The position numbers and the translations under genes were made by a program. A DNA stretch of 64,000 nt from a bacterium (GTDB taxonomy: Bacteria; Bdellovibrionota_C; UBA2361; CALJRW01): NCBI GenBank assembly GCA_031385045.1, contig JANNBC010000025.1, positions 1-64,000 on the forward strand, given 5' to 3'. Shown piece after piece: positions 12,082-40,898 of the stretch (the stretch's first letter is position 1; every line of letters begins with the position of its first letter). The notes beneath the pieces were generated by a model. The model worked only from the letters and a program-made list of their open reading frames with translations. It did no database searches and had not been told where the DNA came from.

Positions 12082-12996
12082 TTAGATAAAAAGCTCATTT
12101 ACAGACAAATATCTTTCCCCAGTGTCATAGCAAAAGGTTAAAATTGTTTTTCCTGCTGGTATATCTAGTAGTTTTTGTTGAACTGCCGCCAAGGAAGCTC
12201 CAGAGGAGACACCAATAAAAATACCCTCTTGTTTAACGCACTGACGAGCCATCTCAAAGGCATCTTTAGGATCTACTTTAATAACTCCATCAATCAGTTC
12301 CATTTTTAAGTTTTTTGGAATAAAGCCTGCCCCGATTCCCTGAATTGGATGGGGACCCGGTGCTTCTCCCGAAATAACAGCAGAAACAGTTGGCTCTACT
12401 GCAAAAACTTTCAAATTAGGAAAATGTTTTTTGAGCAGTTGAGCACATGCTGTAATATGTCCGCCAGTTCCAACCCCTGTAATTAAATAATCGAGTCCAT
12501 CAGGAAAATCTTTTAAGATTTCTTCCGCAGTAGTTTTGAGGTGGACTTCGATATTAGCAGGATTTGAAAATTGATCTGGTGACCAGGCATTCTCGGTAGC
12601 TTCCACTAGTTCAATCGATTTTTGAATTGCGCCTTTCATCCCCAATTCTCTAGGTGTTAGAACTAATTCTGCACCAAGATTTTGCATATAGCGACGTCGC
12701 TCGAGAGACATTGACTCTGGCATTACTAAAATTAGTCGATAGCCTTTAACAGCGCAGACCATGGCAAGTCCAATTCCAGTATTCCCAGAGGTGGGTTCAA
12801 TAATGACACCATCTTTTTTTAACTTACCGCTTTTTTCAGCATCTTCAATCATTGCCAAGGCAATTCTGTCCTTAATACTAGCACCAGGATTTGCTCTTTC
12901 TAATTTCATCCAAACTTGGTGCTTAGTTCCAAATAAATTGTTGATTTTTACGTGAGGGGTGTTGCCAATTGTTTCTAGGATGTTATTTACTTTCAT
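12082..12996 (-). CDS. cysK: Cysteine synthase A
   Basis: [11 protein letters not shown] (PLP lysine), [36 protein letters not shown]. Confidence 0.97.
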
Positions 12997-13020
12997 ATTT
13001 AGTTATTTAAGCTTATTATT

Positions 13021-13221
13021 TATATAGTAATGACAAAAAATAATTTACGTTAGTAAATTAAATACTGTCATTGCGGCGAATGCAAATCTTGGATTTTTGT
13101 CCTACCAAAGCCTATGCGGCGGCGGATATCCAAGTTTACATCGCTAAAAACAATACAAATAGGGAGTCCAAACAAAATCGTTAGTTTTTTAACGTAATTT
13201 ATTTTTTGGACTCACTATATA
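13021..13221. mobile_element. 201-bp MITE-like element with imperfect terminal inverted repeats and TA ends
   Basis: Left end tatatagtaatgacaaaaaataatttacgtta; reverse complement of right end tatatagtgagtccaaaaaataaattacgtta; central hairpin carries a REP-like unit at 13100-13126. Confidence 0.7.
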
Positions 13222-13348
13222 AGTTGTTGAATTAACACTTTGCTGTAGCTTTCATATTATAGGCAGTACTTACTTTTCTGTACATTGTAAATTTAAGCAT
13301 ATTTCGCTATAAAATCCTGATTAATTTATAACTTTAGATCGCAATAAA

Positions 13349-14041
13349 ATGAAACTATCAGTCATTATTCCTTGTTATAACGAAAAAGAAACTATTCATC
13401 AGATTATTGATGCTGTAAAGGCAGCTCCAGTGAGAGATTTAGAAATTATTATTGTTGATGATTTTTCTACCGATGGAACTCGTGAGCTCCTAAGGGAGGA
13501 AGTCGTTGGGCGAGTCGATAAGATTATTTACCACCCATATAACCAAGGGAAGGGGGCGGCACTTCGAACTGGTATTAAAGAAGCAACTGGGGATTTGGTG
13601 ATTATTCAAGATGCTGACTTAGAGTACGATCCTCAAGAATATGGAATTTTAATTGAGCCAATCTTGAAAGATCGGGCTGATGTAGTTTTTGGATCTAGGT
13701 TCATGGGGGCTGCTCCACACCGAGTAGTTTATTTTTGGCATATGATGGGTAACAAGTTCTTAACCTTATTATCTAATATGTTCACAAATATTAACTTAAC
13801 CGATATGGAAACTTGTTATAAAGTTTTCCGAAGAGAAATTATTCAAAATATTAAAATTGAGGAAGAGCGTTTTGGATTTGAGCCAGAGATTACAGCGAAG
13901 ATTTCTCGTGCGAAATGCCGCATTTATGAGGTTGGTATTTCCTATTATGGACGAACTTACGAGGAAGGAAAAAAGATTGGCTGGCGTGACGGTTTTAGAG
14001 CGATCTATGCAATTATTAAATATAATACATGGGCAGTTTAG
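13349..14041 (+). CDS. Glycosyltransferase family 2 (polyprenol-phosphate sugar synthase-like)
   Basis: [42 protein letters not shown]. Confidence 0.95.
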
Positions 14042-15474
14042 AAGTAGAATCTGAAAGTTCCAAGTATATCTTTGTCGATCTAGATGGGACCTTACTTAAA
14101 AGCGACCTTTTCTTTGAAGGTTTGATCGTAATTGCTAAGCAAAGCCCATTGGTTTTTCTGCAAATTATTTTTATCCTACTCTTGCGAGGTAAGGCTCAAG
14201 CCAAAGCATTGCTAGCTGAAAAGGTATCTCCCGATCTACAACTAACACCGCTTACTGTTCATTTTTTTGACTACCTACTTAATGAAAAAAAAAGTGGTCG
14301 TAAGGTTATTCTAGCAACTGCTAGTAATCAGCTTTGGGCAGAGCAGGTAGTAAAGCATTTTACAGTATTTGAAGATTACATAGCGAGTACTGCCAATTTT
14401 AATAATATTGGTAAGAATAAACTAGCCAAGATTAAAGAATATACTGGGGGGCAACCTTATGAGTATTGTGGGAATGATTCCAGAGACTTGCCGATCTGGG
14501 CCGAGGCTCAGGAAATAGTTGTCGTGAATGCCAGTCCAGCTATTATTAAAAAAGCCTGTGCACTAAAAAAACCTAAATATTTATTTAATGAACAGTATCG
14601 TCCAGTTGGAAAATCATTAATTAAATTACTTCGTCCACATCAATGGGCTAAGAATCTATTAATCTTCTTACCAATTGGCTTGGCACATCATATTTTTGAT
14701 TTTGCAAATCTTTGTGCTGCATTATTAGCCTTTATAGTTTTTAGCTTAACTGCCTCAGCAGTATATGTTTTAAATGATTTAGCTGACTTAGAAGCAGACC
14801 GCTTACATCAAACAAAGAATAAGCGACCATTAGCTTCTGCTGATTTTCCAATTAAGTACGTTTTTCTTTTAATTCCAGTTTTAATTATTGCGGCTCTTGG
14901 GATTACAGCAACATTACCAATTAATTTTGCATATAGTCTGTTGGTTTATTTTTTAGTTACCACTGCTTACTCAATTCATTTGAAACAGGTTGTTGTTTTA
15001 GATATTATTATTTTATCTTTATTATATACTATTCGGATTTTAGCTGGTGGTTTTGCCACACAAGTGGAGGTCTCGTTTTGGTTAATGGCCTTCTCACTGT
15101 TTTTCTTTTTTAGTTTGGCTACTCTTAAGCGGTATGTGGAGTTAGTTAAATCTGCTAATCTGAGTAGTACTGTCGCTCGTCGGGGGTATTCTGCTTTAGA
15201 TCTAAATATTGTAGCAATTGTTGGAGTTGCTGGTGGATTAGTCTCTGTCTTGGTGATGGCCTTGTATATTCATAATAGTGGCCTTAAAATTCTTTATCGT
15301 GACATTGAATTTCTCTGGATGCTTTGTCCAGTTTTATTGTACTGGATTACCCGAATTTGGATTTTAGCAAATCGTGGTCAAGTGAATGAAGATCCAGTGC
15401 TGTTTGCTTTGAAAGATCGAGCTAGTTATTTCGTCGGTTTAATTACTATTGTCATTCTGTGTTTAGCAAAATAG
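14029..15474 (+). CDS. HAD-like + UbiA family polyprenyl-phosphate phosphoribosyltransferase
   Basis: VDLDGTL N-terminal domain; [34 protein letters not shown]. Confidence 0.92.
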
Positions 15475-15508
15475 CAGCTATTCAAATTAATTTAAGTTTT
15501 TAAGAAAA

Positions 15509-16801
15509 ATGGAATATTTATCATGGGGGCGGTATCCAAAGGCCAAGCATCATTCCATACCATTATATTGGCAGTCAGAATTACCAGAGTTTGATCATAG
15601 TAAAACATACTTAGCCTATGGTCTAGGTCGAAGTTACGGCGACTCCTGTTTGAATGATCAAGGCGAGCTGCTAGTTACTTCAGGCTTAAATAAGATTATT
15701 AGTTTTGATTCTCAAACTGGTATTATTGAATGTGAGGCTGGCCTTAGTTTGCAGGATTTAATTAATTTTGCCTTACCCCAAGGTTGGTTTTTACCAGTGT
15801 CTCCAGGTACCAAATTTGTAACAATTGGTGGTGCGATTGCCAATGATATCCATGGAAAAAACCATCACCAAGCAGGAACCTTCGGTAGCTTTGTAAAAAG
15901 TTTTAAGTTACTTCGTTCTAACCAGACTATTTATCACTGTTCTCCAACAAACAATCTTAATTTGTTTAATGCAACAATTGCTGGATTAGGTCTTACAGGA
16001 TTGATAGTCAGTGCTCGGATTCAACTGAAAAAAGTTAGGGGACCATTAATTCAGCAAGAAGTAATTAAGTTTCAAGGCTTAGAGGAATTTATGGAGATTT
16101 CTCAAAGCTCGGCTGGATATGAATATACGGTAGCTTGGCTTGATTGTGTAAGCTCTGGGGAAAATTTTGCTCGAGGGCATTTTATTCGTGGCAATCACAG
16201 TGAGACTTCTAGCACTAATTATGTTTATCGAAAGTTACCACTGACGGTTCCCTTTAATTTTCCAAGTTTTGCTTTAAATAAATACTCAGTTAAGGCCTTT
16301 AATCATCTCTATTATAATCGACAAATACCTAAAGAAAAAAAATCGGAAGTTCATTATGATCCATTTTTCTATCCGCTAGATGGAGTTAGTAATTGGAATC
16401 GAATCTATGGTTCGGCAGGCTTATTGCAATTTCAGTGCGTTGTACCTTTTAATGATGGCTTGGCTGGTATTAAAGAGATTATGAAGATGGTGGTAGCCTC
16501 TGGTCGAGCCTCGTTCTTAGCTGTCCTAAAAGAGTTTGGTGATATTCCATCTCCTGGAATGTTATCATTTCCTCGAGCGGGTATTACACTTTGCCTAGAT
16601 TTTCCTAACTGTGTTGCAACAAGAGAATTATTGAAACGGCTTGATTTGAAAGTACGAGAATTAGGTGGTGCTAGTTATCCAGCAAAGGATGCAATCTTTC
16701 CAAAAGAGAGTTTTATGGTTTATTATCCAAGATGGAAGGAATTTACAGAATTTAAAGATCCTAGTTTTTGTTCTGATTTTTGGAAGAGAGTTACAAGATG
16801 A
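15509..16801 (+). CDS. FAD-binding oxidoreductase, DprE1-like epimerase subunit
   Basis: GLGRSYGDS, PVSPGTKFVTIGGAIANDIHGKNHH, SFLAVLKEFG. Confidence 0.92.
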   Translation: MEYLSWGRYPKAKHHSIPLYWQSELPEFDHSKTYLAYGLGRSYGDSCLNDQGELLVTSGLNKIISFDSQTGIIECEAGLSLQDLINFALPQGWFLPVSPGTKFVTIGGAIANDIHGKNHHQAGTFGSFVKSFKLLRSNQTIYHCSPTNNLNLFNATIAGLGLTGLIVSARIQLKKVRGPLIQQEVIKFQGLEEFMEISQSSAGYEYTVAWLDCVSSGENFARGHFIRGNHSETSSTNYVYRKLPLTVPFNFPSFALNKYSVKAFNHLYYNRQIPKEKKSEVHYDPFFYPLDGVSNWNRIYGSAGLLQFQCVVPFNDGLAGIKEIMKMVVASGRASFLAVLKEFGDIPSPGMLSFPRAGITLCLDFPNCVATRELLKRLDLKVRELGGASYPAKDAIFPKESFMVYYPRWKEFTEFKDPSFCSDFWKRVTR

Positions 16802-17535
16802 GTAAAATTATATTTTTTGGTGCGACATCAGCGATTGCTTTAGCGACAGCACGTTTATATGCCGAGCAAGGTGCAGAGCTTTGTTTAATTGCTCGAAACA
16901 AAGAAAAACTAAGTGATATTGAGGCGGATCTAAAATCTCGTGGAGCAAAGAAGATCCATTTGATTGAATTTGCTTTAGCCAAATCGGAAGATCACACGGC
17001 ACTGTTTGCTGATATTAAAGAAGGGTTCGGGGATTTTGATATTGCCCTCGTCGCGTATGGCTCTCTTGGTAAACAAAAATCTTTAGAGATGGATTTTAGT
17101 CAAGCTCAACAAGAACTTGATGTGAACTTTATTAGTGTTGTTTCAATCTTAACTTCTTTGGCAAACTATTTCAGTCAGAGAAAGCAGGGGACTATTGCTG
17201 TTATTTCTTCTGTTGCCGGAGATCGTGGACGACAAAGTAATTATATTTATGGTGCAGCGAAAGGCGCGCTAACACTGCTACTACAGGGTCTCCGAAATCG
17301 CTTGCATAGTGATGGAGTGCAGGTACTAACAATTAAACCGGGCTTTATTGACACTCCCATGACGGCTGATGTTAAGAAGAATTTTTTATTCGTGAAGCCT
17401 GAAGTTATTGCCTTAGATATTAAAAGAGCAATCGAAACCAAGAAGGATGTAATTTATGTGCCATGGTTTTGGCGCTATATCATGATGATAATCAAGATTA
17501 TTCCGGAGTCAATTTTCAAAAGATTGAAATTATAA
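16798..17535 (+). CDS. SDR oxidoreductase, DprE2-like
   Basis: GATSAIA, SSVAGDRGRQSNYIYGAAK, KPGFIDTPMT; ATG at 16798 overlaps the upstream stop (ATGA). Confidence 0.92.
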   Translation: MSKIIFFGATSAIALATARLYAEQGAELCLIARNKEKLSDIEADLKSRGAKKIHLIEFALAKSEDHTALFADIKEGFGDFDIALVAYGSLGKQKSLEMDFSQAQQELDVNFISVVSILTSLANYFSQRKQGTIAVISSVAGDRGRQSNYIYGAAKGALTLLLQGLRNRLHSDGVQVLTIKPGFIDTPMTADVKKNFLFVKPEVIALDIKRAIETKKDVIYVPWFWRYIMMIIKIIPESIFKRLKL

Positions 17536-28482: not shown

Positions 28483-31400
28483 TTAAAGTAGCTTCTTCCA
28501 AAGAGATTTTGATTTTTGGATATTAGTAATTGGTCCACTAAAAATAATTTCACCACCCAAGTCTCCAGCTCCCGGCCCCATTTCTATTAAATAATCAGAA
28601 TATTTAATAATTAAGGGGTCGTGTTCAATTAAAACTACACTATCACCACGATTAGTGATGTCTTTTAAGACTTTTAATAGCTTAAGAACATCTTGTTGGT
28701 GAAGGCCAACGCTTGGTTCATCAAAAACATACAATGTATGTCCGCGGGGAGTTACGGCTAATTCTTCAGTTAATTTTAGTCGTTGTGCTTCACCACCAGA
28801 GAGTGTTGTTGATGTTTGTCCTAATGTTAGGTAGCCAAGGCCTAGATCACAGGCACTTTTTAAGAGTCGATAAATTTTAGGATAATTAGTAAATAGGTTT
28901 TTTGCTTCTTCAAAAGTTAAATTGAAAATTTCAGAAGCATTTTTATCTAAATACTTAATGCTTAATGTTTCGTCAGTATATCTTTTGCCCTGACAGAGTG
29001 GGCACTCAATTTTAGCTTCAGCTAAAAAGCTCATCTCTAATTTCTGAGTCCCAGTACCATTGCATTCTGGACAACGGCCTCCAGTAGCTGAGTTATATGA
29101 AAAATAACTAGGCCCCCAACCACGAGTTTTTGCAAGGGGCATCTGAGCCAAAAGTTTTCGAATTTCGTCCCAGATTTTTAAATATGAGGCAGGAGTGGAT
29201 CGTGAATTTTTACCAATCGGGGATTGATCTACAACTAGTAAGCGATCGATTGCTAGTTCTGTAGTAACCGAGGCTAGACTATTTTTCCAATGAAGATTTT
29301 TTAAGTTATCAATTGAATTAAGAAAAATATTATTTAGAAAGGTGCTTTTCCCAGATCCTGAGACGCCACAAATTGTTACTAGCGATTGAAGTGGAAAGGA
29401 GGCCTCCAGGGACTTAATATTATTAATAGCCTTGGAAGAGATTTTAACTAAAGGTTTATTCTCTATTGGGTTAGGAGACCAGTCAATTTGAGGGATTTTG
29501 TGAGTCGGATATTTTTTAACACTTCCATTATAAATAATCTGACCACCATCGCGACCTCCACCAGGGCCTAGTTCGATTAAATGATCGGCATAGTTAATTG
29601 TATCTTGATCATGCTCGATTATATAAACAGAATTACCTTGATCTTTTAGTGTAGTAAATTCTTTTAATATTTTTCGATTATCATTCGGGTGTAATCCAGC
29701 ACTTGGCTCATCAAAGATATATAAAACACCATTTAGTGGGGAGCCCATGGAATTTGCTAACTTTAATCTCTGAAGTTCGCCCTTAGAAAGATCCTGACAA
29801 CTGCGACTTAATGGTAAATATTCTAAACCCAGACGTGTTAGTCGGTTAGTTCTAATTTTTATTTCAGAAATAATTGTATCGGCAATTTCTAATTGTTGCT
29901 CTGGAAACTTAATTTGTTCTAAAAAATTAGCTAGTTCAAGAGAATTTAATTTTGCTAGCTCAAAAATATTCTTTTTATTAATTTTAATATTTAGTGACGT
30001 TTGATTAATTCGGGTGCCCTGACAACTAGGACAGATTTTATCTGTAGCAGTTTTGCCGGAGCCAGAACATTTTACACAGCGACCGCGACGAGAATTAAAA
30101 GAAAAATCCTCCGGGTCAGGTTTTAGATATCCGCGATTACACTGAGGACAGCCACGTCTTGTACTTAGGATTTGATCTTGGCCCGCTACATTAGCAATGA
30201 TATTCCCACCACTCAAACTAATAATATCTCGAATAGCTTCAAGGATTAGATCTGCTGGGATTCGATTTGGGACAACTTTGGCATAAACAAATTCGATATT
30301 ATGAACTTGGTTTCGACTAAGCCCTTCTTCAAAACGGCTAACTGGTCCAAAGATACCATCAACACGAACTTCTTCAATCTCGGATTTACGCGCCTGAATA
30401 AAAACGGGTCGATGATGGCCTTTCTTAGATTTAATAACTGGCACTAAAAGTTTAACAGTTTGCTCGCCAAACTGGAGGATCTTATTTAGAATTTGTTCCA
30501 AGCTAGAACTACTTAATTCATATTCTGGATGATCAGGACAGTAAGGAGTGCCAACTTTCGCAAAGAGTAGTCTTAAAAAATTATAGATTTCACTAACAGT
30601 TCCGAGAGTAGAAAGTTTTCCAGGTTGGAATGTGTGCTGATAGACACAGATTGTTGGTCGTAAATTTTCGATGCTAGCAATCTGAGGCTTGGCTAATTCT
30701 TTAATAAATTGTCGGGCGTAGGGCGAAAGGCAATCCAAGTATTTTCTTTGTCCTTCGGCATAGACGATGTCCTTGGCAATCGTTGATTTTCCAGAGCCAG
30801 ACACCCCAGTAAAAACAACAATCTCGTTATGTGGTATCTCCAGATCGATATTTTTTAAGTTATGTTCTTTCGCTGCGAATATTTTTAACTTACTAGAATC
30901 ATGTTTGCTAGGTTTTTCCTTATCAAACTTTAACTTACTAGCTTGATATCTAGTAACATAACTTTGTAAATATTTAGCAGTTAAAGATTTCGTTTGATTT
31001 ATTTTCTTTAAAAAGTCAGTAGGTGTTCCTTCTAGAACAACCTGCCCGCCATGCTTTCCACCCTCAGGTCCTAAATCAATAATCTGATCTGCTGCTAAGA
31101 TAATATCTTGATTGTGTTCAATACAAATAATTGAATGACCAGCATCGATCAATTCGTTAAAAACTAGTAATAGGTTTTTAACATCTTCCTGGCTCAGTCC
31201 GGTGGAAGGTTCATCAAATATTAATAGCGAATCTCCCCGAGTAGCTTTTTGAATAAATGGAACTAATTTTAAGCGTTGTGCTTCGCCACCAGAAAGCTGA
31301 CTTAGCGGATGACCTAAAGTTAGATGTCCCAGTCCTAATTTATTTAAACTTTGGCAAATGGCAAAAGCATCAAGGTGATTGATTAATAAATCCTGACATT

Positions 31401-33744
31401 CCGAAACTGTAGTTTTTAACCATTCGGCTACATTTCGATCTTGGTAGGTGACATCTAGTACGGAGTCTTGAAATCGTTGACCTAAGCAAAGATCACAGGT
31501 GACATAAACATCACTTAAGAACTGCATCTCTTCTTTTAGATACCCAGCCCCCTTACAGTGTGGGCAGCGACCCCCCTCAACATTAAAAGAGAAAGTTGAT
31601 TTGCTAAAAAGTTTTTGTTTGGCCAAAGGGCTATCGGCTAGTTCTTCTCGAATCATTTCCCAGAGCTTGCTATAAGTGGCAATATTTGAGCGAGGACTTT
31701 TAACAAGTGAACTCTGATCTACTGCTAGTACTTGTTGAAATTGCTCCAGGCCTAGAACAGAAAACTTACTAGATGGATCTTGGCGTTGATTTTCCTGATA
31801 GGCTTTTAGAATAACTTCAATTGCCAAACTACTTTTGCCACTTCCTGAAACCCCAGATAGAACAACTAAGCAGGAGAGTGGTATACGAAGGTCTATTTTT
31901 TTAAGATTCCTGACTCCTTCAACCTTGACAATTAGTTGACTAGGAGAACTTTTGCTATTCTTTTTGGGAGTTACTGGGATAAATTTATGCTTCCAATTAC
32001 TTGGTGGCCCATAGTAAACAACTTCGCCACCTAATTTCCCTGCTTTCGGGCCAAGGTGTAGGATTTGATCTGCTGCTAAGATACAATCGGGATCATGCTC
32101 AACCATTAGGATACTATTTCCACGATTTTTTAATTCTTTTATTGCTTGCATTAAGCGTTCTGAATCCCGTGGGTGAAGGCCAACAGAGGGCTCATCTAAA
32201 ACAAATTGGGTGGAAACTAATTCGCTACCAATTGCCGATACTAGATTGACTCGCTGAGTTTCTCCGCCTGATAAGGTCTTTGCTGGGCGGCTTAAGCTTA
32301 GGTAATCTAGCCCCAGATTGATCATCTGTTTAATCCTAGCAGTGCTTTGTTGAAAAACTGTTTCTAGTTCGAGAGATTTTGATTTGTTAACTAGTGGTTT
32401 TAAACCAGCAATCCAATCTCCTAATTCGTTAATTGGTAGTTCACGGACTTCTGAGACATTCTGATTATTTAATCGAAACAGTAAGGCTTCAGACTTATTG
32501 CCACTTCCTTGGCAATCATCACAAATTACTGGAGAGCGGTATTTAGTAAGGTAGATTCGCACATAAGCTTTATAGGATTTACGCTCAATCTTTTTAAACC
32601 AGGGATTAAGTCCTAAATAACCTTTGCCTTCGTAATTAAAAATTAAATCTTTTTCCTCAGTAGATAACTTACTCCAAGGAAGATTGATTTTAATCTTATG
32701 ATCGGAGGCAAACTTAATTAACTTTTCTTTTAAATTCTGAACGGCTGGTCCTTTCCAACAATCGACGGCATTTTCAATTAATGATAACTCTGGATCGATA
32801 ATAATCTTTTTTGAATCCGGAATTAAATTAGCACCAAAACCTTTACAGTGTGGGCATGCTCCCAGTGGATTATTAGGGGAAAAAAGCCCAGGTTTGGGAA
32901 TTGGGATTTTAATTTCTAAATTATCTTGAGCTGGATCCGAATAGAAAGAAGTAAAACGCTTAAAATTAATCTGTTCATTTTCTGGAATTGCTAGATAAGC
33001 AATTCCTTTTCCCAATTGATATGCCTGTTCAACTGCCTCAATTAAACGATGAGTTTTGCTTTGATTTGGTTTTAAGCGATCGATTAAAATATAAATTAAA
33101 TCTTGATTGGCAAGTTGATTCAAATCTTCTGCTAATTTATACACATTAGCCGAATTGGGAATTAAAAAACGATTGTAACCCATCAGTTGTAAATTGTTTA
33201 CTTGTTCCGCCAAGTCTTTTTTGGAAACTTTTTTGGCAGAGGATTTTTTCTTTGTTGTTAACTGGCAGGGAGCACAGATATATAAATAATCTGTTGCCAA
33301 GTTTAATCCTGAGATTAGTTCTGCGACTTCATTTGGTGAATGCTTTTGTAGAAGTTGTTGGTTAATTGGGGAATAGGGTAGTGCAAAATTGGCGAATAGA
33401 ATTCCAAGATAGTCATTTAGATCCGTTAAAGTTCCTACTGAAGATCGACTAGAATGGATTTTATTTTTTTGTTCAATAGCAATTGCTGGGCGAACATTCT
33501 CACTACTTTCTAAGTCCGGTTTTTTAACTTTGTCTAAGAATTGACGAACATATGAGGAAAACGTTTCTAAATAACGTCTTTGACCCTCGGCATAGATCGT
33601 ATCAAAAGCTAAGGTTGATTTTCCCGAACCGGAGAGTCCTGTAACAGCAATTAACTGATCATGTGGAAGGGTAATACTTAAATCTTTTAAGTTATTTTCT
33701 TTGAGTCCAGTGAGTGATAAATGAAAATGTTTTTGTTCTGACAA
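28483..33744 (-). CDS. uvrA: Excinuclease ABC subunit A, double-length (tandem UvrA-UvrA fusion)
   Basis: Four Walker A motifs (GLSGSGKS, three GVSGSGKS), four signature/DEPS motifs, Zn-finger CxxC pairs; 1753 aa. Confidence 0.95.
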   Translation of the reverse strand: MSEQKHFHLSLTGLKENNLKDLSITLPHDQLIAVTGLSGSGKSTLAFDTIYAEGQRRYLETFSSYVRQFLDKVKKPDLESSENVRPAIAIEQKNKIHSSRSSVGTLTDLNDYLGILFANFALPYSPINQQLLQKHSPNEVAELISGLNLATDYLYICAPCQLTTKKKSSAKKVSKKDLAEQVNNLQLMGYNRFLIPNSANVYKLAEDLNQLANQDLIYILIDRLKPNQSKTHRLIEAVEQAYQLGKGIAYLAIPENEQINFKRFTSFYSDPAQDNLEIKIPIPKPGLFSPNNPLGACPHCKGFGANLIPDSKKIIIDPELSLIENAVDCWKGPAVQNLKEKLIKFASDHKIKINLPWSKLSTEEKDLIFNYEGKGYLGLNPWFKKIERKSYKAYVRIYLTKYRSPVICDDCQGSGNKSEALLFRLNNQNVSEVRELPINELGDWIAGLKPLVNKSKSLELETVFQQSTARIKQMINLGLDYLSLSRPAKTLSGGETQRVNLVSAIGSELVSTQFVLDEPSVGLHPRDSERLMQAIKELKNRGNSILMVEHDPDCILAADQILHLGPKAGKLGGEVVYYGPPSNWKHKFIPVTPKKNSKSSPSQLIVKVEGVRNLKKIDLRIPLSCLVVLSGVSGSGKSSLAIEVILKAYQENQRQDPSSKFSVLGLEQFQQVLAVDQSSLVKSPRSNIATYSKLWEMIREELADSPLAKQKLFSKSTFSFNVEGGRCPHCKGAGYLKEEMQFLSDVYVTCDLCLGQRFQDSVLDVTYQDRNVAEWLKTTVSECQDLLINHLDAFAICQSLNKLGLGHLTLGHPLSQLSGGEAQRLKLVPFIQKATRGDSLLIFDEPSTGLSQEDVKNLLLVFNELIDAGHSIICIEHNQDIILAADQIIDLGPEGGKHGGQVVLEGTPTDFLKKINQTKSLTAKYLQSYVTRYQASKLKFDKEKPSKHDSSKLKIFAAKEHNLKNIDLEIPHNEIVVFTGVSGSGKSTIAKDIVYAEGQRKYLDCLSPYARQFIKELAKPQIASIENLRPTICVYQHTFQPGKLSTLGTVSEIYNFLRLLFAKVGTPYCPDHPEYELSSSSLEQILNKILQFGEQTVKLLVPVIKSKKGHHRPVFIQARKSEIEEVRVDGIFGPVSRFEEGLSRNQVHNIEFVYAKVVPNRIPADLILEAIRDIISLSGGNIIANVAGQDQILSTRRGCPQCNRGYLKPDPEDFSFNSRRGRCVKCSGSGKTATDKICPSCQGTRINQTSLNIKINKKNIFELAKLNSLELANFLEQIKFPEQQLEIADTIISEIKIRTNRLTRLGLEYLPLSRSCQDLSKGELQRLKLANSMGSPLNGVLYIFDEPSAGLHPNDNRKILKEFTTLKDQGNSVYIIEHDQDTINYADHLIELGPGGGRDGGQIIYNGSVKKYPTHKIPQIDWSPNPIENKPLVKISSKAINNIKSLEASFPLQSLVTICGVSGSGKSTFLNNIFLNSIDNLKNLHWKNSLASVTTELAIDRLLVVDQSPIGKNSRSTPASYLKIWDEIRKLLAQMPLAKTRGWGPSYFSYNSATGGRCPECNGTGTQKLEMSFLAEAKIECPLCQGKRYTDETLSIKYLDKNASEIFNLTFEEAKNLFTNYPKIYRLLKSACDLGLGYLTLGQTSTTLSGGEAQRLKLTEELAVTPRGHTLYVFDEPSVGLHQQDVLKLLKVLKDITNRGDSVVLIEHDPLIIKYSDYLIEMGPGAGDLGGEIIFSGPITNIQKSKSLWKKLL

Positions 33745-33774: not shown

Positions 33775-34740
33775 TTATTCTATTGTTTGATTTAAAGCAT
33801 ACGCGGAAAAGGCTGAACCGTAAAATGTAGACTGATCAAATAAAATCTTTTTGCTATTTGTCGCAGTGTCATGGATGGATGTCTTCCATCTCCAGATATA
33901 ATCTTTCTCCATGTGTTTAGCGGAAAGTTCTATCACTAATTTTTGTGAGACGTTAACGTCGATGCCATTTTCAAATGGAAAGAAGACACTGCCGTATACT
34001 TGGTTTTTAGCATCTGGCCCACAGGAATAGGAAACTGTTGAAGTTAGTTCACAGTCAAACCAAGCAAAAAACCCAAATAATGTTTCGTTTGAGCCAGTGA
34101 AGCTTACAGTTGAACGATGAGAATAGTCTTGGATCTTTGTATAATCGAGCTGACACCAGAGGCTTGGTTTTGCTGAAAGCATTTCCTGCTTGATTGGTAA
34201 GGGGTAGAAGGTATTGCAGAGATATTTTTCGTAGGCCTTGGTCGTAAATGGAAATTTTTGGTTTAAAAACGGTCTAACTTTCTGATTGAAAATATTTTTA
34301 TCGCGACAAGGAGCCAAGTAGATCTTATCAATACTTGGTAGAAGTTTACCTGTTGGTTTTAAGAATTTCTCTTGTGCTAATTTCATGATCTTTAAATTAT
34401 CTTCGTAGAAGGGAAGTTTTCCTCTTAAGTCGGCAATAATCAGATCAACTTGCGAAAAATTTAAATTCTCAATTTTTTCTTCATAGAATTCCACTCGGTC
34501 CTCAAATTTATTTTCTTTCACGAGCTCTCGAGCGATTTGAATCGCAGGGTTAGGTTCGACAGCGATTACTTTTTTAGCTCCGAGAGAACATGCCAGGAGC
34601 GTAAAGCCTCCAGTGCCTGCGCCTAAGTCTAGGACAATAGTTTCTGGTGTAATAATTTCCGCTAATGCTTTAGCATAAGCCGGAACTCTTACTGGGTCAG
34701 CTAACATTTGAGAGAAGTGGCGAGGACTATAAGTATTCAT
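33775..34740 (-). CDS. PRMT-fold SAM-dependent methyltransferase (RiPP-associated candidate)
   Basis: HFSQMLADPVRVPAY, VLDLGAGTG, AVEPNP, VDLIIAD, FLKPTGKLLP, GFFAWFDCEL beta-barrel. Confidence 0.85.
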   Translation of the reverse strand: MNTYSPRHFSQMLADPVRVPAYAKALAEIITPETIVLDLGAGTGGFTLLACSLGAKKVIAVEPNPAIQIARELVKENKFEDRVEFYEEKIENLNFSQVDLIIADLRGKLPFYEDNLKIMKLAQEKFLKPTGKLLPSIDKIYLAPCRDKNIFNQKVRPFLNQKFPFTTKAYEKYLCNTFYPLPIKQEMLSAKPSLWCQLDYTKIQDYSHRSTVSFTGSNETLFGFFAWFDCELTSTVSYSCGPDAKNQVYGSVFFPFENGIDVNVSQKLVIELSAKHMEKDYIWRWKTSIHDTATNSKKILFDQSTFYGSAFSAYALNQTIE

Positions 34741-34845
34741 TAGATAGATTATTACTGGTGATCTTTTGAAGGATCAACTGCTAGTCTAGGTTATTAATCA
34801 GATAATGAGAACTAAATTTAGAGTAAGAGAGGATTGGAACAAATA

Positions 34846-34986
34846 CTATGTTTGCATACCAAAAAAATCAGCTGACATTGAGCCACCAAATTTAGTTAAC
34901 TCTTTAAGCGAGCCATATTTAATTAGTTTAGGCTTTTGATAAGTTTTTTTTTCTTTTTTAGTATCTGGGGTTTTCTTATCTTCCAT
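34846..34986 (-). CDS. 46-aa RiPP precursor peptide with lasso-type leader (not in ORF track)
   Basis: MEDKKTPDTKKEKKTYQKPKLIKYGSLKELTKFGGSMSADFFGMQT*; YxxPxLxxxGxxxxxT motif; lies between the RRE and methyltransferase genes. Confidence 0.88.
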   Translation of the reverse strand: MEDKKTPDTKKEKKTYQKPKLIKYGSLKELTKFGGSMSADFFGMQT

Positions 34987-35026
34987 AGGTTACATTATAA
35001 TTTAAAATTTAAGTTATGTGAAGCAA

Positions 35027-35311
35027 TTAAATGAGAGTAATAACCTCGGCTTCCAGTAGGCCTTGAATCAGGTTAATTAAGTCTTGCTGTAAATCTGCTT
35101 CATTAACCTCGTAATCTTCCGCTAGTAATTTAGATGCTTCTAGGATAGAGGAGGACTCTACTAGCCTCATGTAAAAAGCATAGCCGGTGGAATCTAGGCC
35201 ATAGTAGTTGTTATTCTTCAAATTTAGCAACACGCAGGTATCATCAAGTTGTTTAACTAGGACATCGTCTTGAGCTACAACTTGACTTTGTAGATTGATA
35301 TTCACAGCCAT
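35027..35311 (-). CDS. PqqD family RiPP recognition element (lasso B1-like)
   Basis: VLVKQLDDTCVLLNLKNNNYYGLDSTG; LAEDYEV...QQDLINLIQGLLEAEVI. Confidence 0.92.
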   Translation of the reverse strand: MAVNINLQSQVVAQDDVLVKQLDDTCVLLNLKNNNYYGLDSTGYAFYMRLVESSSILEASKLLAEDYEVNEADLQQDLINLIQGLLEAEVITLI

Positions 35312-35316
35312 TTAAA

Positions 35317-36102
35317 TTACTCTAAAGTGTATTTCTCTAGAGAAATATCAATTCCACCTTCGGAGATGTACTTGGCAATGATATTAGCATTAAAGCAACC
35401 AGGGAATTCCGGACAAAGTACAACTGTGAAACTAGAATCTTCTTTAATATCTTCTTTTTTAATTGTTTTGGTAAAGATAATTTCCTCAGGATTTCCTTTT
35501 TTGAAAACCTTTAAAAGTAAGCTTTGATAATCTGTTTCTTCAGTAGAAAAACTACAAAACAATTGACCACTTTGCGGGGCAAATAAAACCTGATCTGATC
35601 CGGCTTGGTACGCTGGTATATTCTTGCCTTTAAGTTCGCAGTTACCAGAAAATAGACCTGTCACAATATTTGTTTCTTCGTAAGTTGGAGGTAGCACAAG
35701 ATCAACTGGTAATGGCTCAGTTGGTAAATTAGCCTCAGAGGCAAATGTTAATGTCGCATTTAAGCAGTCCTGAATCCCATCACGAATTAATTGCTTGGTG
35801 GCTATTTGGGATTCCATTTTCCGCTTAAGTTTATTACTAGACTCTTTTTTTAGGTCAGCTTTTAGAAGTTTGATTTCTTTTACTACCTGTTTTCGAAGTT
35901 TTAGGGCTTGGCGGTCAGTAAACTCCCGGACATTTTTTTCCAGTCCATCCTGTGTAAAAGTTTTAATCAAGACAGAATTGCTATTTTCTTTGCAAAAATA
36001 AGACTTAGTTTTACTAATTATTGCAATTCTTTGATCTTCAGCCTGGGCACTTAGACTTAACAAAAGGACTAATGGTAATATGTATTTTAGTTTTATGTTC
36101 AC
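35317..36102 (-). CDS. Secreted hypothetical protein
   Basis: Signal peptide ending AQA; basic coiled segment between Cys residues; 5 bp from the RRE gene. Confidence 0.75.
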   Translation of the reverse strand: MNIKLKYILPLVLLLSLSAQAEDQRIAIISKTKSYFCKENSNSVLIKTFTQDGLEKNVREFTDRQALKLRKQVVKEIKLLKADLKKESSNKLKRKMESQIATKQLIRDGIQDCLNATLTFASEANLPTEPLPVDLVLPPTYEETNIVTGLFSGNCELKGKNIPAYQAGSDQVLFAPQSGQLFCSFSTEETDYQSLLLKVFKKGNPEEIIFTKTIKKEDIKEDSSFTVVLCPEFPGCFNANIIAKYISEGGIDISLEKYTLE

Positions 36103-36251: not shown

Positions 36252-39200
36252 ATGTCTCATAAGTCGTTTCTCGCTCTTTTTTTATTTTTCCTAGCTAATC
36301 TGCTGGAAGCTCAGGCTCCAGGGAACGTTACAGCTAACTTTCCGCTTTGGTTAAAGGCTAATGCTGGGACGTCTACCACAACAGATGGTGTGGGTGTTCA
36401 GACATGGACGGATCAGGCAACAGCATTGGGAGGAAGTAATAATGCTACTCAAGCTACAGCAGCCAATCGACCACTCTATAAAAGTCTTACTCCAATTAAT
36501 TTTAATCCTTACATTCGTTTTGATGGAGTTAGTGATCGCTTTCAGATTGCCTCCAATACTAGCATTAATAACGTAGCCAGTCTTACTAAGTCTGTATATT
36601 ATGCCTTTCGAACTGGTAGTAGCGTGATTTCTCCTGTCAGGCAGTTAATTTATAAAGAACGAAATCATCAGTCGGGTTTTAACTTATACCTATATAACGG
36701 GAATCTTTACTGTTCAGCTTTTAAAACAAATACAGCACCAACATGGCCATGGAAGGGGAATAGTGTTGCCGCCACGCCTAACACTACTTATGTTGTAAGT
36801 TTTATTATGAATGGGACTGCAGCTAATGCTGGAACGATTGCTTGCTATGTTAATAGTTCTCAGTTTGCGAATCTTACAGGTGTTGGTCAAATTCAAGCTG
36901 TAAATGCCATTAGTAATATAGGTTCTAGAGAATTACGAACGAACTATGAAGGTGTTCAGGTTGCAAATGCTAATGCTGATTTTTCCGCCGTCGATTTTAG
37001 CGAAATTGCTTATTATAATGCTGCTCATACAACGGCAGAGCGCAATAAAATTGAGTCCTATCTGGGGGTAAAGTATGGAGTAACTCTTAATCAAACTGTT
37101 GCTAATAATTACACCAACAGTGCTGGAACTGTAATTTTTAATGCTACAGGTACGCATAATTCTTATCGCAATGATATTGCCGGTATTATGATTGATACAA
37201 ATTCTGGCCTTAGTCAATTACAGTCGAAATCTGTCAATACTGATGCAATCGTAACAATGTCCACAGCTTCTGCCATGGCGAATACTGAATCACTGCTCTG
37301 GGGGAATGACAACGACGATAATGGTGTGATTCAGGAAATCTATACGGGGATTCCTGCTGGCGTTGCCGCTAGATTAGATCGAGTTTGGAGAGCCGATCAA
37401 ACTGGTGATGTTGGGACTGTTACGATCACTTTTAACTTAAATGGCATTGCAGTGTCTGGAACCTCTGCCAGTCAATTTCGTTTGCTGGTTGATTCGGTTA
37501 ATAGTGATTTTACATCAGGTGCTACCCAAGTAAATGCTGCCACATATTCTGGTGGAATTGTAACTTTTAATAATGTTGATTTTACTGGGGATGATTATTT
37601 TACATTAGTAACTTATGTCACACCTAGTCCTCCTACCGTTACGTTAACTACTAATTCTAGTACTATTTTGGAAAATGGTGGGGTGGCAACTCTGACAGCA
37701 ACCCTAAGTAATATTTGGACATCCGCCGTAACTGTTAATTTAAGTTATAGTGGAACAGCTACAAACGTGACTGATTATTCTAGATCAGGAGCATCTATTA
37801 CAATCCCTATTAATTCCTTAAGTGGTTCAGTTACGCTTACGGCAATTGATGATGCTTTTAGTGAAGGAGCGGAAACTGTCATTACCGATATTAGTTCGGT
37901 TTCTGGAGGTGGTACGGAGAGCGGGGTGCAACAAGTTACAGTCACTATTACTGATGATGAGCCTGTTAATAATGCTTGCAGTGGTCAGGAGCGTATATTC
38001 ACTACGGAATTAGCAAGTGGTGATGTTAATACTTATAGTATTGCTGGGGTTTATCAAGCAACCTCAACCTCAGCCTATACTCAAAACTATGAAATGATAA
38101 TCGATCCAGATAATAATTATCGTTATCTAGCATCCTATGGCAACCTTCGAATTACTAGAGCTAACTTTGATGGAACAGGGGAGATAACTCTTTTTAATAC
38201 ATCTCTGTATTCAGCAAATCCTCCTTTTCAAGTTACAATTAATCCAAACCAAGGCAAAATTTATTGGACAGATTGGGCAGCAAATACAGCTAACATTTTT
38301 TGTGCCAATCTTGATGGTACGGGAACACCAGTTGCCATCGCTACGGGATTAAATTACCCGACTGGTATGCAGATCGATAAAAACACAGGGCGTTTATATG
38401 TTTACTTTGGTCTTAATGCGCCTATTACCTTAACTACAGCTCTGACTAACGGAAGTTGTGGTGCAATTACTTTAGCAACACTTTTAAATACGGGACTAGA
38501 CTTAGCTTATAATTTAACAATCGATCCTCCAGGAAATCGACTTTTCTTTGTAGATTACAACTCACAAACGATCAAAAAGGTTAATACAGATGGTACTTCT
38601 TTAGTTACTCTCCGAACTTTAACTGCTCCTGGGGACCAGATGCGGGATATCGTTTATAATAAGAATACTAATAACCTTTACTGGGTTCACACTAATGGTG
38701 TGATTCAGCGAGCCTTGGCCGATGGAACTGGTGGGATTACAACTGTTGTTGCCAGTGGTCAGCCTGATAGTCGTTCGATTGATATTTGTGTTGATGATGC
38801 TGCTCCACGTCTAAGTCGTTTTTATAGTACTTCAGCTAACAGTCGCTATTGTCCGATTGTTCCAATTAATAGCATTGATATTCGTGCGGTTTATGATGAA
38901 TCGGTTGTTGCAGGTTCGACGATCACGGTGCAATTAAACAATGGGGCGAATGTCGTTTTGAGTTCAATCACAGGGAATGAAATATCTGGAACTTATACTG
39001 TCGGTGCTACTGGTAGTGGTCAAACAATTGCTGATTTATCTGTTGCCAGTATTGTTAGTGAGTCTGTTTTAGATGTTAATAATAATACGCGAGTTAATTC
39101 TACAGTTCCAGCTAGTCCAAATAACTTAGGAGATTCTTCCAATATTGTTGTTGATACTTCTGCTCCTGTGATTACAGAAGTAACGCCCGTAGCTTCTCCA

Positions 39201-40898
39201 ACAATAAATCGTAATCCAACATATGTTATTAACTCTAGTGAGGTGGCAACAATTTCCTTTGGTGGTTCATGTAATAGTGTTACCACTAGTTTAGTAGCGG
39301 GGAATAACACAATTACTTTGGATTCTAATGGCGCGGGAGGACAGTTAGCTGATGGGGTTTACAGTAACTGTACGATAACAGTGACCGATGCTTCTGCTTG
39401 TAATACTACGAATTATAATATTTCTGCTTTTACAGTGGCAGCGACAGTTCCAACTGTCACTCTTAGTCGAAATTTTGCAACGATTAATGAAGCTGCTGGA
39501 GTAGCAACTTTTACAGCCACCTTGATTAATACCTATGCCTTAGCAACGACTGTTAATCTTAGTTTTAGTGGAACAGCAGGCGGTAGTGATTATTCTGCTT
39601 CTAATACTCAGATTGTGATTCCAGCACTTAGTACTACTGGGACGATTACAGTTACAGCAACTGAGGATCTTTTGGTTGAAAGTACTGAAACAGTCATCGT
39701 TGATATCTCAACAGTTACAAATGGAACTGAAAGTGGTGTGCAACAGGCTTCAACTTCAATCTTAGATAATGATTCTCCATCTTCTGTAACACTTTCAACA
39801 AACCTCAGTAGTATCTCAGAAGCTGGCGGAGTAGCAATTTTAACCGCGACACTAAATACTCTTAGTGCATTAAATGTAACAGCAAATTTAACCTACACGG
39901 GAACGGCAGCTAATGGCACTGATTATACAGCCGCGACTAGTATCGTAATTACGGCAGGTAGTCTTTCCGCTAGTATTAATTTAACCGGACTAGAAGATGC
40001 TACTTTTGAAGTCACAGAAACAGCTATCGTTGATATTAGTAGTGTTACTAATGGTACAGAAGCTGGTGTTCAGCAAGTAACAGTGAGTATTACAGAGGAT
40101 GCTGTTTGTAATCAGCCTGCTTGGCCGGCTCCTCATGGATTAACCAAATATATTGCCATGAGTTTTGAGCGAACTTTTGCTTCCACTAATGGATATGTGC
40201 CGCCAAGTGGTGATGCTTTTGATACTTACCTTGCTCGAAACCAAACTCAAAAAGATGCTAAGCGTGATAGTGCCTATGCCTTTTTCTTAAGCGAGTATGG
40301 ACTTGATTTTGCAAATGATGGAATTTCTTGCCCAGGGGGAATTTGTATTATGAATGGGCCTGATGCTCAAGTCATGCTTCGTTACATAAGTTTTGATAGT
40401 AATTTTCAAGCTAAGATTAATGCTGCAAGTAGTTACAAAGTTGATACTTCTGGTGGTGATTTAAGAGCTGGTATTTATCAGGTACTTACTTTTGATACTG
40501 AAAATATGTCTGGCAATGATGGTACAATTTTAAATGGTGCTTGGGGTGGAGGCCCCGGTAAACTAGTTCCTCGTGGTACAGTTTTAGAGTACGGTGAATA
40601 TCAACTCCAAATTTTATATCCTTGCACAGATGCCCCTAATCCAAACTTTACTAGAACCGATACCTTTTTAGTTGAATTTCAAAGTCAGAAACCAAGTTTA
40701 GCTGATTTTAATGAGGATAACGGAGCTTTCTTTCTTGATATTCCACAAATTTTTGAATATGAAATTACAAATGTAACTCCTAATTTTCCTACAGGATTTG
40801 TGAATGGTGAGATAATTGGTCGGACTGAGATTAGGCAAGATCCTGCTAGTCCTTATAACGTTACCGCTATTTCTAGTGTTACTTTGACAGTTCCTTAG
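36252..40898 (+). CDS. Large secreted/surface multidomain protein (LamG-like, Calx-beta-like repeats, YWTD-type beta-propeller, Ig-like, unknown C-terminal domain)
   Basis: Signal peptide; LWLKANAG..WTDQ; KIESYLGVKYG; three TVTL..I.E..GVA..TATL...GTESGVQQ repeats; IYWTDW, LFFVDY. Confidence 0.85.
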   Translation: MSHKSFLALFLFFLANLLEAQAPGNVTANFPLWLKANAGTSTTTDGVGVQTWTDQATALGGSNNATQATAANRPLYKSLTPINFNPYIRFDGVSDRFQIASNTSINNVASLTKSVYYAFRTGSSVISPVRQLIYKERNHQSGFNLYLYNGNLYCSAFKTNTAPTWPWKGNSVAATPNTTYVVSFIMNGTAANAGTIACYVNSSQFANLTGVGQIQAVNAISNIGSRELRTNYEGVQVANANADFSAVDFSEIAYYNAAHTTAERNKIESYLGVKYGVTLNQTVANNYTNSAGTVIFNATGTHNSYRNDIAGIMIDTNSGLSQLQSKSVNTDAIVTMSTASAMANTESLLWGNDNDDNGVIQEIYTGIPAGVAARLDRVWRADQTGDVGTVTITFNLNGIAVSGTSASQFRLLVDSVNSDFTSGATQVNAATYSGGIVTFNNVDFTGDDYFTLVTYVTPSPPTVTLTTNSSTILENGGVATLTATLSNIWTSAVTVNLSYSGTATNVTDYSRSGASITIPINSLSGSVTLTAIDDAFSEGAETVITDISSVSGGGTESGVQQVTVTITDDEPVNNACSGQERIFTTELASGDVNTYSIAGVYQATSTSAYTQNYEMIIDPDNNYRYLASYGNLRITRANFDGTGEITLFNTSLYSANPPFQVTINPNQGKIYWTDWAANTANIFCANLDGTGTPVAIATGLNYPTGMQIDKNTGRLYVYFGLNAPITLTTALTNGSCGAITLATLLNTGLDLAYNLTIDPPGNRLFFVDYNSQTIKKVNTDGTSLVTLRTLTAPGDQMRDIVYNKNTNNLYWVHTNGVIQRALADGTGGITTVVASGQPDSRSIDICVDDAAPRLSRFYSTSANSRYCPIVPINSIDIRAVYDESVVAGSTITVQLNNGANVVLSSITGNEISGTYTVGATGSGQTIADLSVASIVSESVLDVNNNTRVNSTVPASPNNLGDSSNIVVDTSAPVITEVTPVASPTINRNPTYVINSSEVATISFGGSCNSVTTSLVAGNNTITLDSNGAGGQLADGVYSNCTITVTDASACNTTNYNISAFTVAATVPTVTLSRNFATINEAAGVATFTATLINTYALATTVNLSFSGTAGGSDYSASNTQIVIPALSTTGTITVTATEDLLVESTETVIVDISTVTNGTESGVQQASTSILDNDSPSSVTLSTNLSSISEAGGVAILTATLNTLSALNVTANLTYTGTAANGTDYTAATSIVITAGSLSASINLTGLEDATFEVTETAIVDISSVTNGTEAGVQQVTVSITEDAVCNQPAWPAPHGLTKYIAMSFERTFASTNGYVPPSGDAFDTYLARNQTQKDAKRDSAYAFFLSEYGLDFANDGISCPGGICIMNGPDAQVMLRYISFDSNFQAKINAASSYKVDTSGGDLRAGIYQVLTFDTENMSGNDGTILNGAWGGGPGKLVPRGTVLEYGEYQLQILYPCTDAPNPNFTRTDTFLVEFQSQKPSLADFNEDNGAFFLDIPQIFEYEITNVTPNFPTGFVNGEIIGRTEIRQDPASPYNVTAISSVTLTVP

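Follow-up and report, generated by a model that had tools for sequence, protein, structure and literature searches.

The window analyzed here, 64,000 nucleotides long, is the first part of a bacterial contig (C60:1-64000; C60 counts 118,939 bases) from an assembly of 2.83 Mb in 61 contigs that is 94.9% complete. Within 35311-33775 it carries, on the minus strand, a cassette of three co-oriented genes encoding a PqqD-type recognition element (RRE) for peptides that ribosomes make and that are modified after translation (RiPPs), a 46-aa peptide and a methyltransferase with the fold of protein arginine methyltransferases (PRMTs). We consider it quite probable that this cassette supplies the precursor to a lasso-peptide pathway whose genes are divided between two loci, because the only B2 peptidase and the best cyclase candidate of the genome sit on another contig, C48, without a precursor, and occur in the same genomes as the cassette. 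For the methyltransferase we propose that it methylates the linear precursor with the help of the RRE and at a site other than arginine, a proposal for and against which we see about equal weight.

The sequence-only reading that preceded this analysis had described the same three genes, with a PqqD/B1-like RRE, a lasso leader motif in the peptide and no B2 or cyclase nearby; it had offered two explanations, a new class of methylated linear RiPP or a split lasso cluster, and a whole-genome search for B2 and cyclase was set beforehand to decide between them. Its description of the genes was borne out. The first gene (35311..35027, minus strand) encodes a discrete, B1-like RRE of 94 aa, which matches the Pfam family PqqD (PF05402) with 45.1 bits at a cut-off of 23.4. 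The two NCBIfam models that fit it best describe lasso PqqD chaperones, and with 42.1 and 37.8 bits it stays under their cut-offs of 80 and 70. The precursor gene (34986..34846, minus strand; 46 aa and a stop) follows after 40 nt, and after a further 105 nt the methyltransferase gene (34740..33775, minus strand), whose product of 321 aa is a short-form, class I methyltransferase dependent on S-adenosylmethionine (SAM), assigned to the PRMT fold from Pfam, a structural model and Foldseek.

The 46-aa peptide (MEDKKTPDTKKEKKTYQKPKLIKYGSLKELTKFGGSMSADFFGMQT) is recognized by the lasso leader model NF033521 (lasso_leader_L3; 25.5 bits, cut-off 19) and stays narrowly under the cut-off of 33 with NF033528 (lasso_cyano; 31.9 bits). 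Over the whole genome it is the one NF033521 match above cut-off and 14 control genomes gave none, so the leader match exceeds chance; a regular-expression search of the genome found no other short open reading frame (ORF) with the leader motif. The predicted leader spans M1-K32 (34986..34891) with the motif Y16-x2-P19-x-L21-x3-G25-x5-T31, and the predicted core spans F33-T46 (34890..34849; FGGSMSADFFGMQT), with an Asp at core position 8 if the precursor is cut after Lys32, inside the range 7-9 from which an Asp or Glu closes a lasso ring onto residue 1; the cleavage site and the ring residue are both deduced from the Thr(-2) rule. The core contains neither Arg nor Lys, and the leader is also free of Arg. 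The same-genus orthologue shares 42 of the 46 residues, and the gene pair shows 13.5 synonymous and 5.5 non-synonymous differences (dN/dS ~0.06). Judged by this substitution pattern, the precursor gene, which the sequence-only reading had left to stand or fall with its conservation, is real and under strong purifying selection, and it is the most constrained gene of the cassette.

The genome-wide search told in favor of the split layout and gave no support to a new class of methylated linear RiPP. Neither B2 (PF13471) nor the cyclase family (PF00733) gave a match anywhere on C60, and both were found on C48. The single PF13471 match of the genome (C48:11863-12288) passes the lasso B2 model NF033537 with 41.5 bits (cut-off 33) and has Cys84, His117 and Asp128 in place. 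The candidate lasso cyclase, a protein of 520 aa (C48:9776-11338), is the best PF00733 match of the genome (34 bits, cut-off 21) and carries the SGGLDS motif. Directly before it, ending 1 nt ahead of its start, lies a B1 gene (39.2 bits for PF05402), which together with the window RRE makes up the two PqqD matches of the genome; the two proteins are 35% identical. The same contig holds an NTP_transf_5 nucleotidyltransferase (C48:469-1494; 98 bits) and an HprK-like P-loop protein of 293 aa (C48:3497-4378), which matches the kinase-like genes of complete clusters (E 2e-9 and 5e-10). The leader model and motif scans detected no leader-type ORF on C48 or on its counterpart in the relative. Relaxed motif scans for a second precursor near these enzymes, over 20 kb in both genomes, returned four unconvincing ORFs, which were discarded. 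We also tried to choose the original B1 by identity to the B1 proteins of complete clusters and gave this up, the ranges being too alike (27-34% for the cassette RRE, 20-34% for the C48 B1).

The lasso genes therefore do not form one cluster, with the precursor on C60 and the enzymes on C48, and this split is repeated in a Bdellovibrionota metagenome-assembled genome of the same genus (L012). There the gene order equals that of the window (secreted protein, RRE, precursor, methyltransferase, UvrA-like gene), and B2, the B1-cyclase pair and the kinase-like gene lie on a different contig, arranged as on C48. Beside the 42 of 46 residues of the precursor, amino-acid identity between the two genomes is 51% for the RRE, 65% for the methyltransferase and 72% for the secreted protein of 261 aa, and synonymous sites are saturated in the genes for these last three. 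Among 41 genomes of the order, the window's own counted in, full-length methyltransferase matches are found in two, and the cyclase in the same two; two further genomes give weak methyltransferase matches of 26-28%. The co-occurrence of methyltransferase and cyclase in 2/41 genomes represents one evolutionary event and is not a statistic.

A link between the methyltransferase and lasso genes was also found well outside this genus, as the neighborhood analysis suggested by the sequence-only reading made clear. A homologous-protein search retrieved 47 proteins, the closest 66% and 53% identical and the others 23-38%, and a metagenome scan found at least 551 relatives. From these at least 551, 80 loci were kept, and their neighbors were counted by local hidden Markov models (HMMs) built from Pfam-confirmed genes. 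A kinase-like gene lies on the same strand no more than 2.3 kb upstream of the methyltransferase in 62/80 loci, within 200 nt in 52; where a locus extends at least 1.2 kb upstream, the gene is found in 41 of 45 cases. Of the 26 loci that extend at least 3.5 kb upstream, 23 have the cyclase, as do 16 of the 18 that extend at least 5 kb; Pfam, run on 106 ORFs of the 19 loci that reach at least 9 kb, confirmed Asn_synthase in 15. Eleven loci had none of the five gene kinds: nine of them are shorter than 3 kb and the other two (L093, L140) are 16 kb long. Typically the genes run B1, B2, C, A, kinase-like gene, in some loci an oxygenase, methyltransferase, and then NTP_transf_5 or an ATP-binding cassette (ABC) exporter, and in a Candidatus Multivoradales genome (L013) the whole set stands together. 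On the UvrA-like ORF of L012 the local kinase HMM gave a match that we recognized as a P-loop false positive and ignored.

Leader-type ORFs occur on the methyltransferase strand in 42 of 83 loci and yield 47 unique linked peptides, the window's included. Counted from Thr(-2), 45/47 have an Asp or Glu at core positions 7-10. Among 45 linked cores, residue 1 is S in 14, T in 7, N in 7, A in 6, G in 6, I in 2, F in 2 and L in 1; a Ser or Thr stands within the last three residues of 35; 34 are without Arg, and 5 are without both Arg and Lys.

Two kinds of gene fusion were seen in these loci. At L013 (5649-6977, plus strand) a 442-aa protein carries a second PqqD domain at its C-terminus, and its N-terminus looks phosphoribosyltransferase-like by eye, Pfam giving PqqD only; a second RRE at the precursor/tailoring end is thus not unique to the window. 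At L080 (9159-10925) and L111 (9292-11022), both on the plus strand, NTP_transf_5 shares one protein with a further class I methyltransferase domain, unrelated to the first, which means that these complete clusters carry two methyltransferases.

The expectation of a PRMT-like enzyme held for the fold; methylation of arginine is not predicted. The model of the window methyltransferase has a pLDDT of 92.1, and Foldseek retrieved PRMT1, PRMT2, PRMT8 and CARM1 at TMq 0.79-0.84 and 20-23% identity over the Rossmann domain and the beta-barrel. The family profile matches yeast Hmt1 with E 1.7e-53 and covers both domains. Pfam reports Methyltransf_31 (40 bits), with PRMT_C (24.4) and PRMT5_C (24.8) remaining under their cut-offs. 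The active-site residues were read from the Hmt1 alignment and 84 family sequences. In PRMTs the double-E and THW loops bind the substrate arginine, with its guanidinium group held by the double-E loop. In this family the first Glu of the double-E loop is replaced by Asp104 in 84/84 sequences and followed by Arg106 in 83/84, the position of the second Glu is occupied by Q in 26, G in 25, E in 15, A in 6 and D in 4, and the THW loop has become (I/V)-Tyr249-Gly, with the Tyr present in all 84. The altered loops together with the arginine-free cores argue against an arginine acceptor, and the acceptor is predicted not to be arginine. Since a pocket Arg is conserved and kinase and methyltransferase are tightly paired, an anionic acceptor, either a carboxylate or a phosphate installed by the kinase, is a reasonable guess.

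Most of the family is longer than the window enzyme: 68/84 sequences measure 380-389 aa, with about 60 extra C-terminal residues, and a long-form model renders this tail as a confident three-helix bundle without strands. The window enzyme and its two closest relatives are devoid of the tail, and there is no room for one before the next gene. The idea that the tail is a cut-down PqqD domain found no support, as hhalign of 12 tails against 8 RREs gave a probability of 0.4% and the model has no strands. A structure prediction for the methyltransferase together with the cassette RRE gave scores of 0.25 and 0.23 vs a mark of 0.32, which speaks neither for nor against a complex.

Taken together, the pathway could run as follows. 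The cassette RRE would bind the YxxPxL leader, and the tail-less methyltransferase would act on the linear, leader-bearing peptide handed over by this adjacent RRE. The acceptor would probably lie in the core tail, where Gln13, Thr14, the C-terminal carboxylate and a phosphate added by the kinase are candidates. B2 and one of the RREs would then cut after Lys32, with Thr at -2, and the cyclase would join Phe1 to Asp8 into a lasso of 14 residues with an 8-residue ring; kinase and nucleotidyltransferase may further decorate Ser or Thr. More broadly, we tentatively suggest, with slightly less than even confidence, that a PRMT fold of eukaryotic type has been repurposed in bacteria for non-arginine lasso tailoring, which would leave a mark so far undescribed on lasso peptides, and that in this genus the enzyme has shed a docking tail and relies on a dedicated, trans-acting RRE, with the precursor locus separate from the ring-forming enzymes.

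Several observations weigh against this picture. The match of the C48 cyclase to its best NCBIfam model, the lasso cyclase NF033535, is 66.9 bits at a cut-off of 525, and it gives no match to the GATase domain that the cyclases of complete clusters have; the HprK-like protein matches TIGR04352 weakly (18 bits, E 0.0012); and the lasso genes of C48 are interspersed with polysaccharide genes, so that another substrate is possible. The assembly being 94.9% complete, a further locus could be unassembled. Phe as core residue 1 is seen in 2/45 linked cores, both from the window's genus, and the window enzyme has Asn115 and Phe222 where His stands in 64/84 and 76/84 sequences, respectively. Elsewhere in the family, the 16-kb loci L093 and L140 contain a full-length methyltransferase and no lasso gene, and in an Acidobacteriota locus (L014) the methyltransferase is accompanied by kinase, PqqD and nucleotidyltransferase with no cyclase within 8 kb, while that genome yielded no B2 match beyond a weak one of 15.8 bits. 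Threading of the product and acceptance of the window peptide by the C48 enzymes are both putative, as judged from sequence, and we infer when the methyl group is added, that this depends on the RRE, and which atom receives it. As a separate observation, the methyltransferase of L140 lies beside a two-component system, and the family may have non-lasso uses or further split layouts.

The same split pathway could also work in a different order, with the methyltransferase acting on the finished, threaded peptide and the cassette RRE serving as a plain B1 partner of B2. This has precedent in aspartimide-forming lasso methyltransferases, which accept only threaded peptide according to the available part of PMC13352647; moreover, a single B1 serves the whole cluster in most family loci, and, compared with the B1 proteins of complete clusters, the cassette RRE comes out at least as close as its C48 counterpart (27-34% vs 20-34%). 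However, the C48 B1 already adjoins the cyclase at a distance of 1 nt, so that the second RRE needs an explanation of its own, and both genomes of the genus combine the short-form methyltransferase with the extra RRE. Most characterized lasso tailoring enzymes, as far as they are covered in the accessible portion of PMC8498205, act on linear precursors. We therefore regard a late-acting methyltransferase as unlikely, although it deserves to be kept in mind.

Two further explanations dispense with the C48 enzymes. If RRE and methyltransferase produced a methylated linear peptide released by a general protease, C48 being unrelated, it would fit that the three genes lie side by side in one orientation and have been conserved together, that the 119-kb contig has no lasso enzyme and that the C48 genes lie among polysaccharide genes. 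It would fit poorly with an enzyme set that is full yet lacks a precursor in both genomes, with the presence of cassette and cyclase in the same 2/41 genomes, with a methyltransferase family found in cyclase-bearing clusters (23/26 loci with enough flank), and with a peptide that keeps Thr(-2) and the Asp at core position 8, which are needed only for lasso processing; such a stand-alone pathway is in our opinion improbable. Still harder to credit is that the methyltransferase is a general protein methyltransferase placed beside the precursor by chance, or that the cassette is a decaying remnant without a product. L093 and L140, long loci with the methyltransferase family and no lasso gene, speak for it, as does a search of sequencing runs that listed sediment metagenome DNA and no RNA, but the linkage to lasso genes extends across dozens of unrelated metagenome contigs, the three ORFs are intact in two genomes despite saturated synonymous sites in neighboring genes, and no other gene of the cassette is as well conserved as that of the peptide. 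The split lasso pathway, with a precursor locus on C60 and a processing locus on C48, thus remains the explanation that we prefer.

Upstream of the precursor gene a promoter-like site, TTCACA-17-TATAAT, was located at 34994..35022 on the minus strand; it agrees with the consensus at 11/12 positions, and its TATAAT box ends 7 nt before the precursor ATG. In L012 (7500-7520) TGTATAAT stands 6 nt before the same ATG. The site is a consensus match only, in a region that held 10 such sites vs 7.3 expected. Between the -10 box and the ATG no Shine-Dalgarno-like purine run is evident in either genome. These features suggest that the precursor may be transcribed from a promoter of its own into an mRNA that is leaderless or nearly so. 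In the spacer between precursor and methyltransferase no terminator-like site was found, and an attenuator hairpin was dismissed because the folding is no better than that of shuffled sequences (z +1.31).

Upstream of the RRE, a predicted secreted protein of 261 aa without a Pfam family is encoded on the same strand (35317..36102), its gene ending 5 nt before the RRE start; it is a syntenic neighbor in the relative and may belong to the pathway. Divergent from it lies the gene of a secreted repeat protein of 1548 aa (36252-40898, plus strand), with a 1222-aa counterpart at the same position in the relative. Downstream, 30 nt after the methyltransferase gene, starts a tandem UvrA-UvrA fusion of 1753 aa (28483-33744, minus strand). 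All three TIGR00630 matches of the genome fall inside this frame and a separate, ordinary UvrA was not found; the relative of the same genus has this fusion at the corresponding position (L012 9000-14261). On C48, the stretch 12376-17268 encodes a Wzy_C O-antigen-ligase-like protein, a group-1 glycosyltransferase, a sugar transferase and a HepA/MsbA-like ABC exporter that might double as a peptide exporter. A 68-aa ORF (C48 4418-4624, minus strand), with a hydrophobic N-terminus that appears Flp-pilin-like by eye, sits between the HprK-like gene and the gene of a 616-aa secreted beta-helix-like protein.

The layout matters for genome mining. Searches that need cyclase, B2 and precursor side by side would probably miss a split pathway of this kind, reporting from one locus a set of enzymes that lacks a precursor, and from the other nothing. 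Most of the at least 551 metagenome family members lie inside lasso clusters, directly after the peptide kinase, and the window version provides a compact test case, with a three-gene cassette, a core of 14 residues and a separate RRE.

In its general make-up the pathway resembles the phosphorylated-lasso clusters of paeninodin, pseudomycoidin and bsf (Bradymonas sediminis), in which B1 and B2 are likewise split. It shares with them the YxxPxL leader with Thr at -2, a discrete B1, a B2 of the transglutaminase type, an HprK-like kinase, NTP_transf_5 and, in the C48 candidate, a cyclase of the Asn-synthetase type. Unlike them, it is laid out over two loci on separate contigs, with a second RRE belonging to the precursor locus, and it includes a PRMT-fold methyltransferase, an enzyme type that goes unmentioned in the lasso reviews as far as their available text extends. 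The role that we propose for the cassette RRE has its likeness in the bsf cluster, where, according to the accessible part of PMC10368454, the RRE BsfB1 also serves a tailoring enzyme, speeding up the kinase on the linear precursor as well as helping B2. Action on linear precursors is likewise described, in the portion of PMC8498205 at hand, for StspM, kinases, CanE and MslH, and the available sections of PMC9266682 state that StspM, which was modelled on the mitomycin 7-O-methyltransferase, acts on the linear precursor before maturation.

Among methyltransferases, the parts of the reviews available to us distinguish two kinds in lasso pathways, the StspM/LasF-type enzymes, which form the C-terminal carboxyl methyl ester of the lassomycin type, and the PIMT homologues. 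The window enzyme would share with both a SAM-dependent lasso tailoring. The PIMT homologues belong to the isoaspartyl methyltransferase family and, in the accessible texts, lead to the aspartimide of cellulonodin-2 and lihuanodin; both kinds differ in fold family from the window enzyme. The latter gives PRMT/PrmA-type Pfam matches, and none of its 16 Pfam matches (E up to 1) is to an StspM-type or isoaspartyl family, a comparison made at the level of families and not directly with the StspM or LihM sequences. A literature search that left subscription journals mostly outside its reach found no PRMT-type methyltransferase described in a lasso cluster, and the chemistry of the enzyme appears to be undescribed. 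With the type I PRMTs (PRMT1/Hmt1, PRMT2, PRMT8 and CARM1) it shares the Rossmann domain and the beta-barrel, but it differs from them in its altered double-E and THW loops and in facing a core without Arg or Lys. Given a PRMT fold with a rebuilt substrate pocket, its product should be a new lasso modification. The lasso pathway itself is thus apparently of a known kind, laid out in an unusual, split manner and equipped with a tailoring enzyme from an apparently uncharacterized family.

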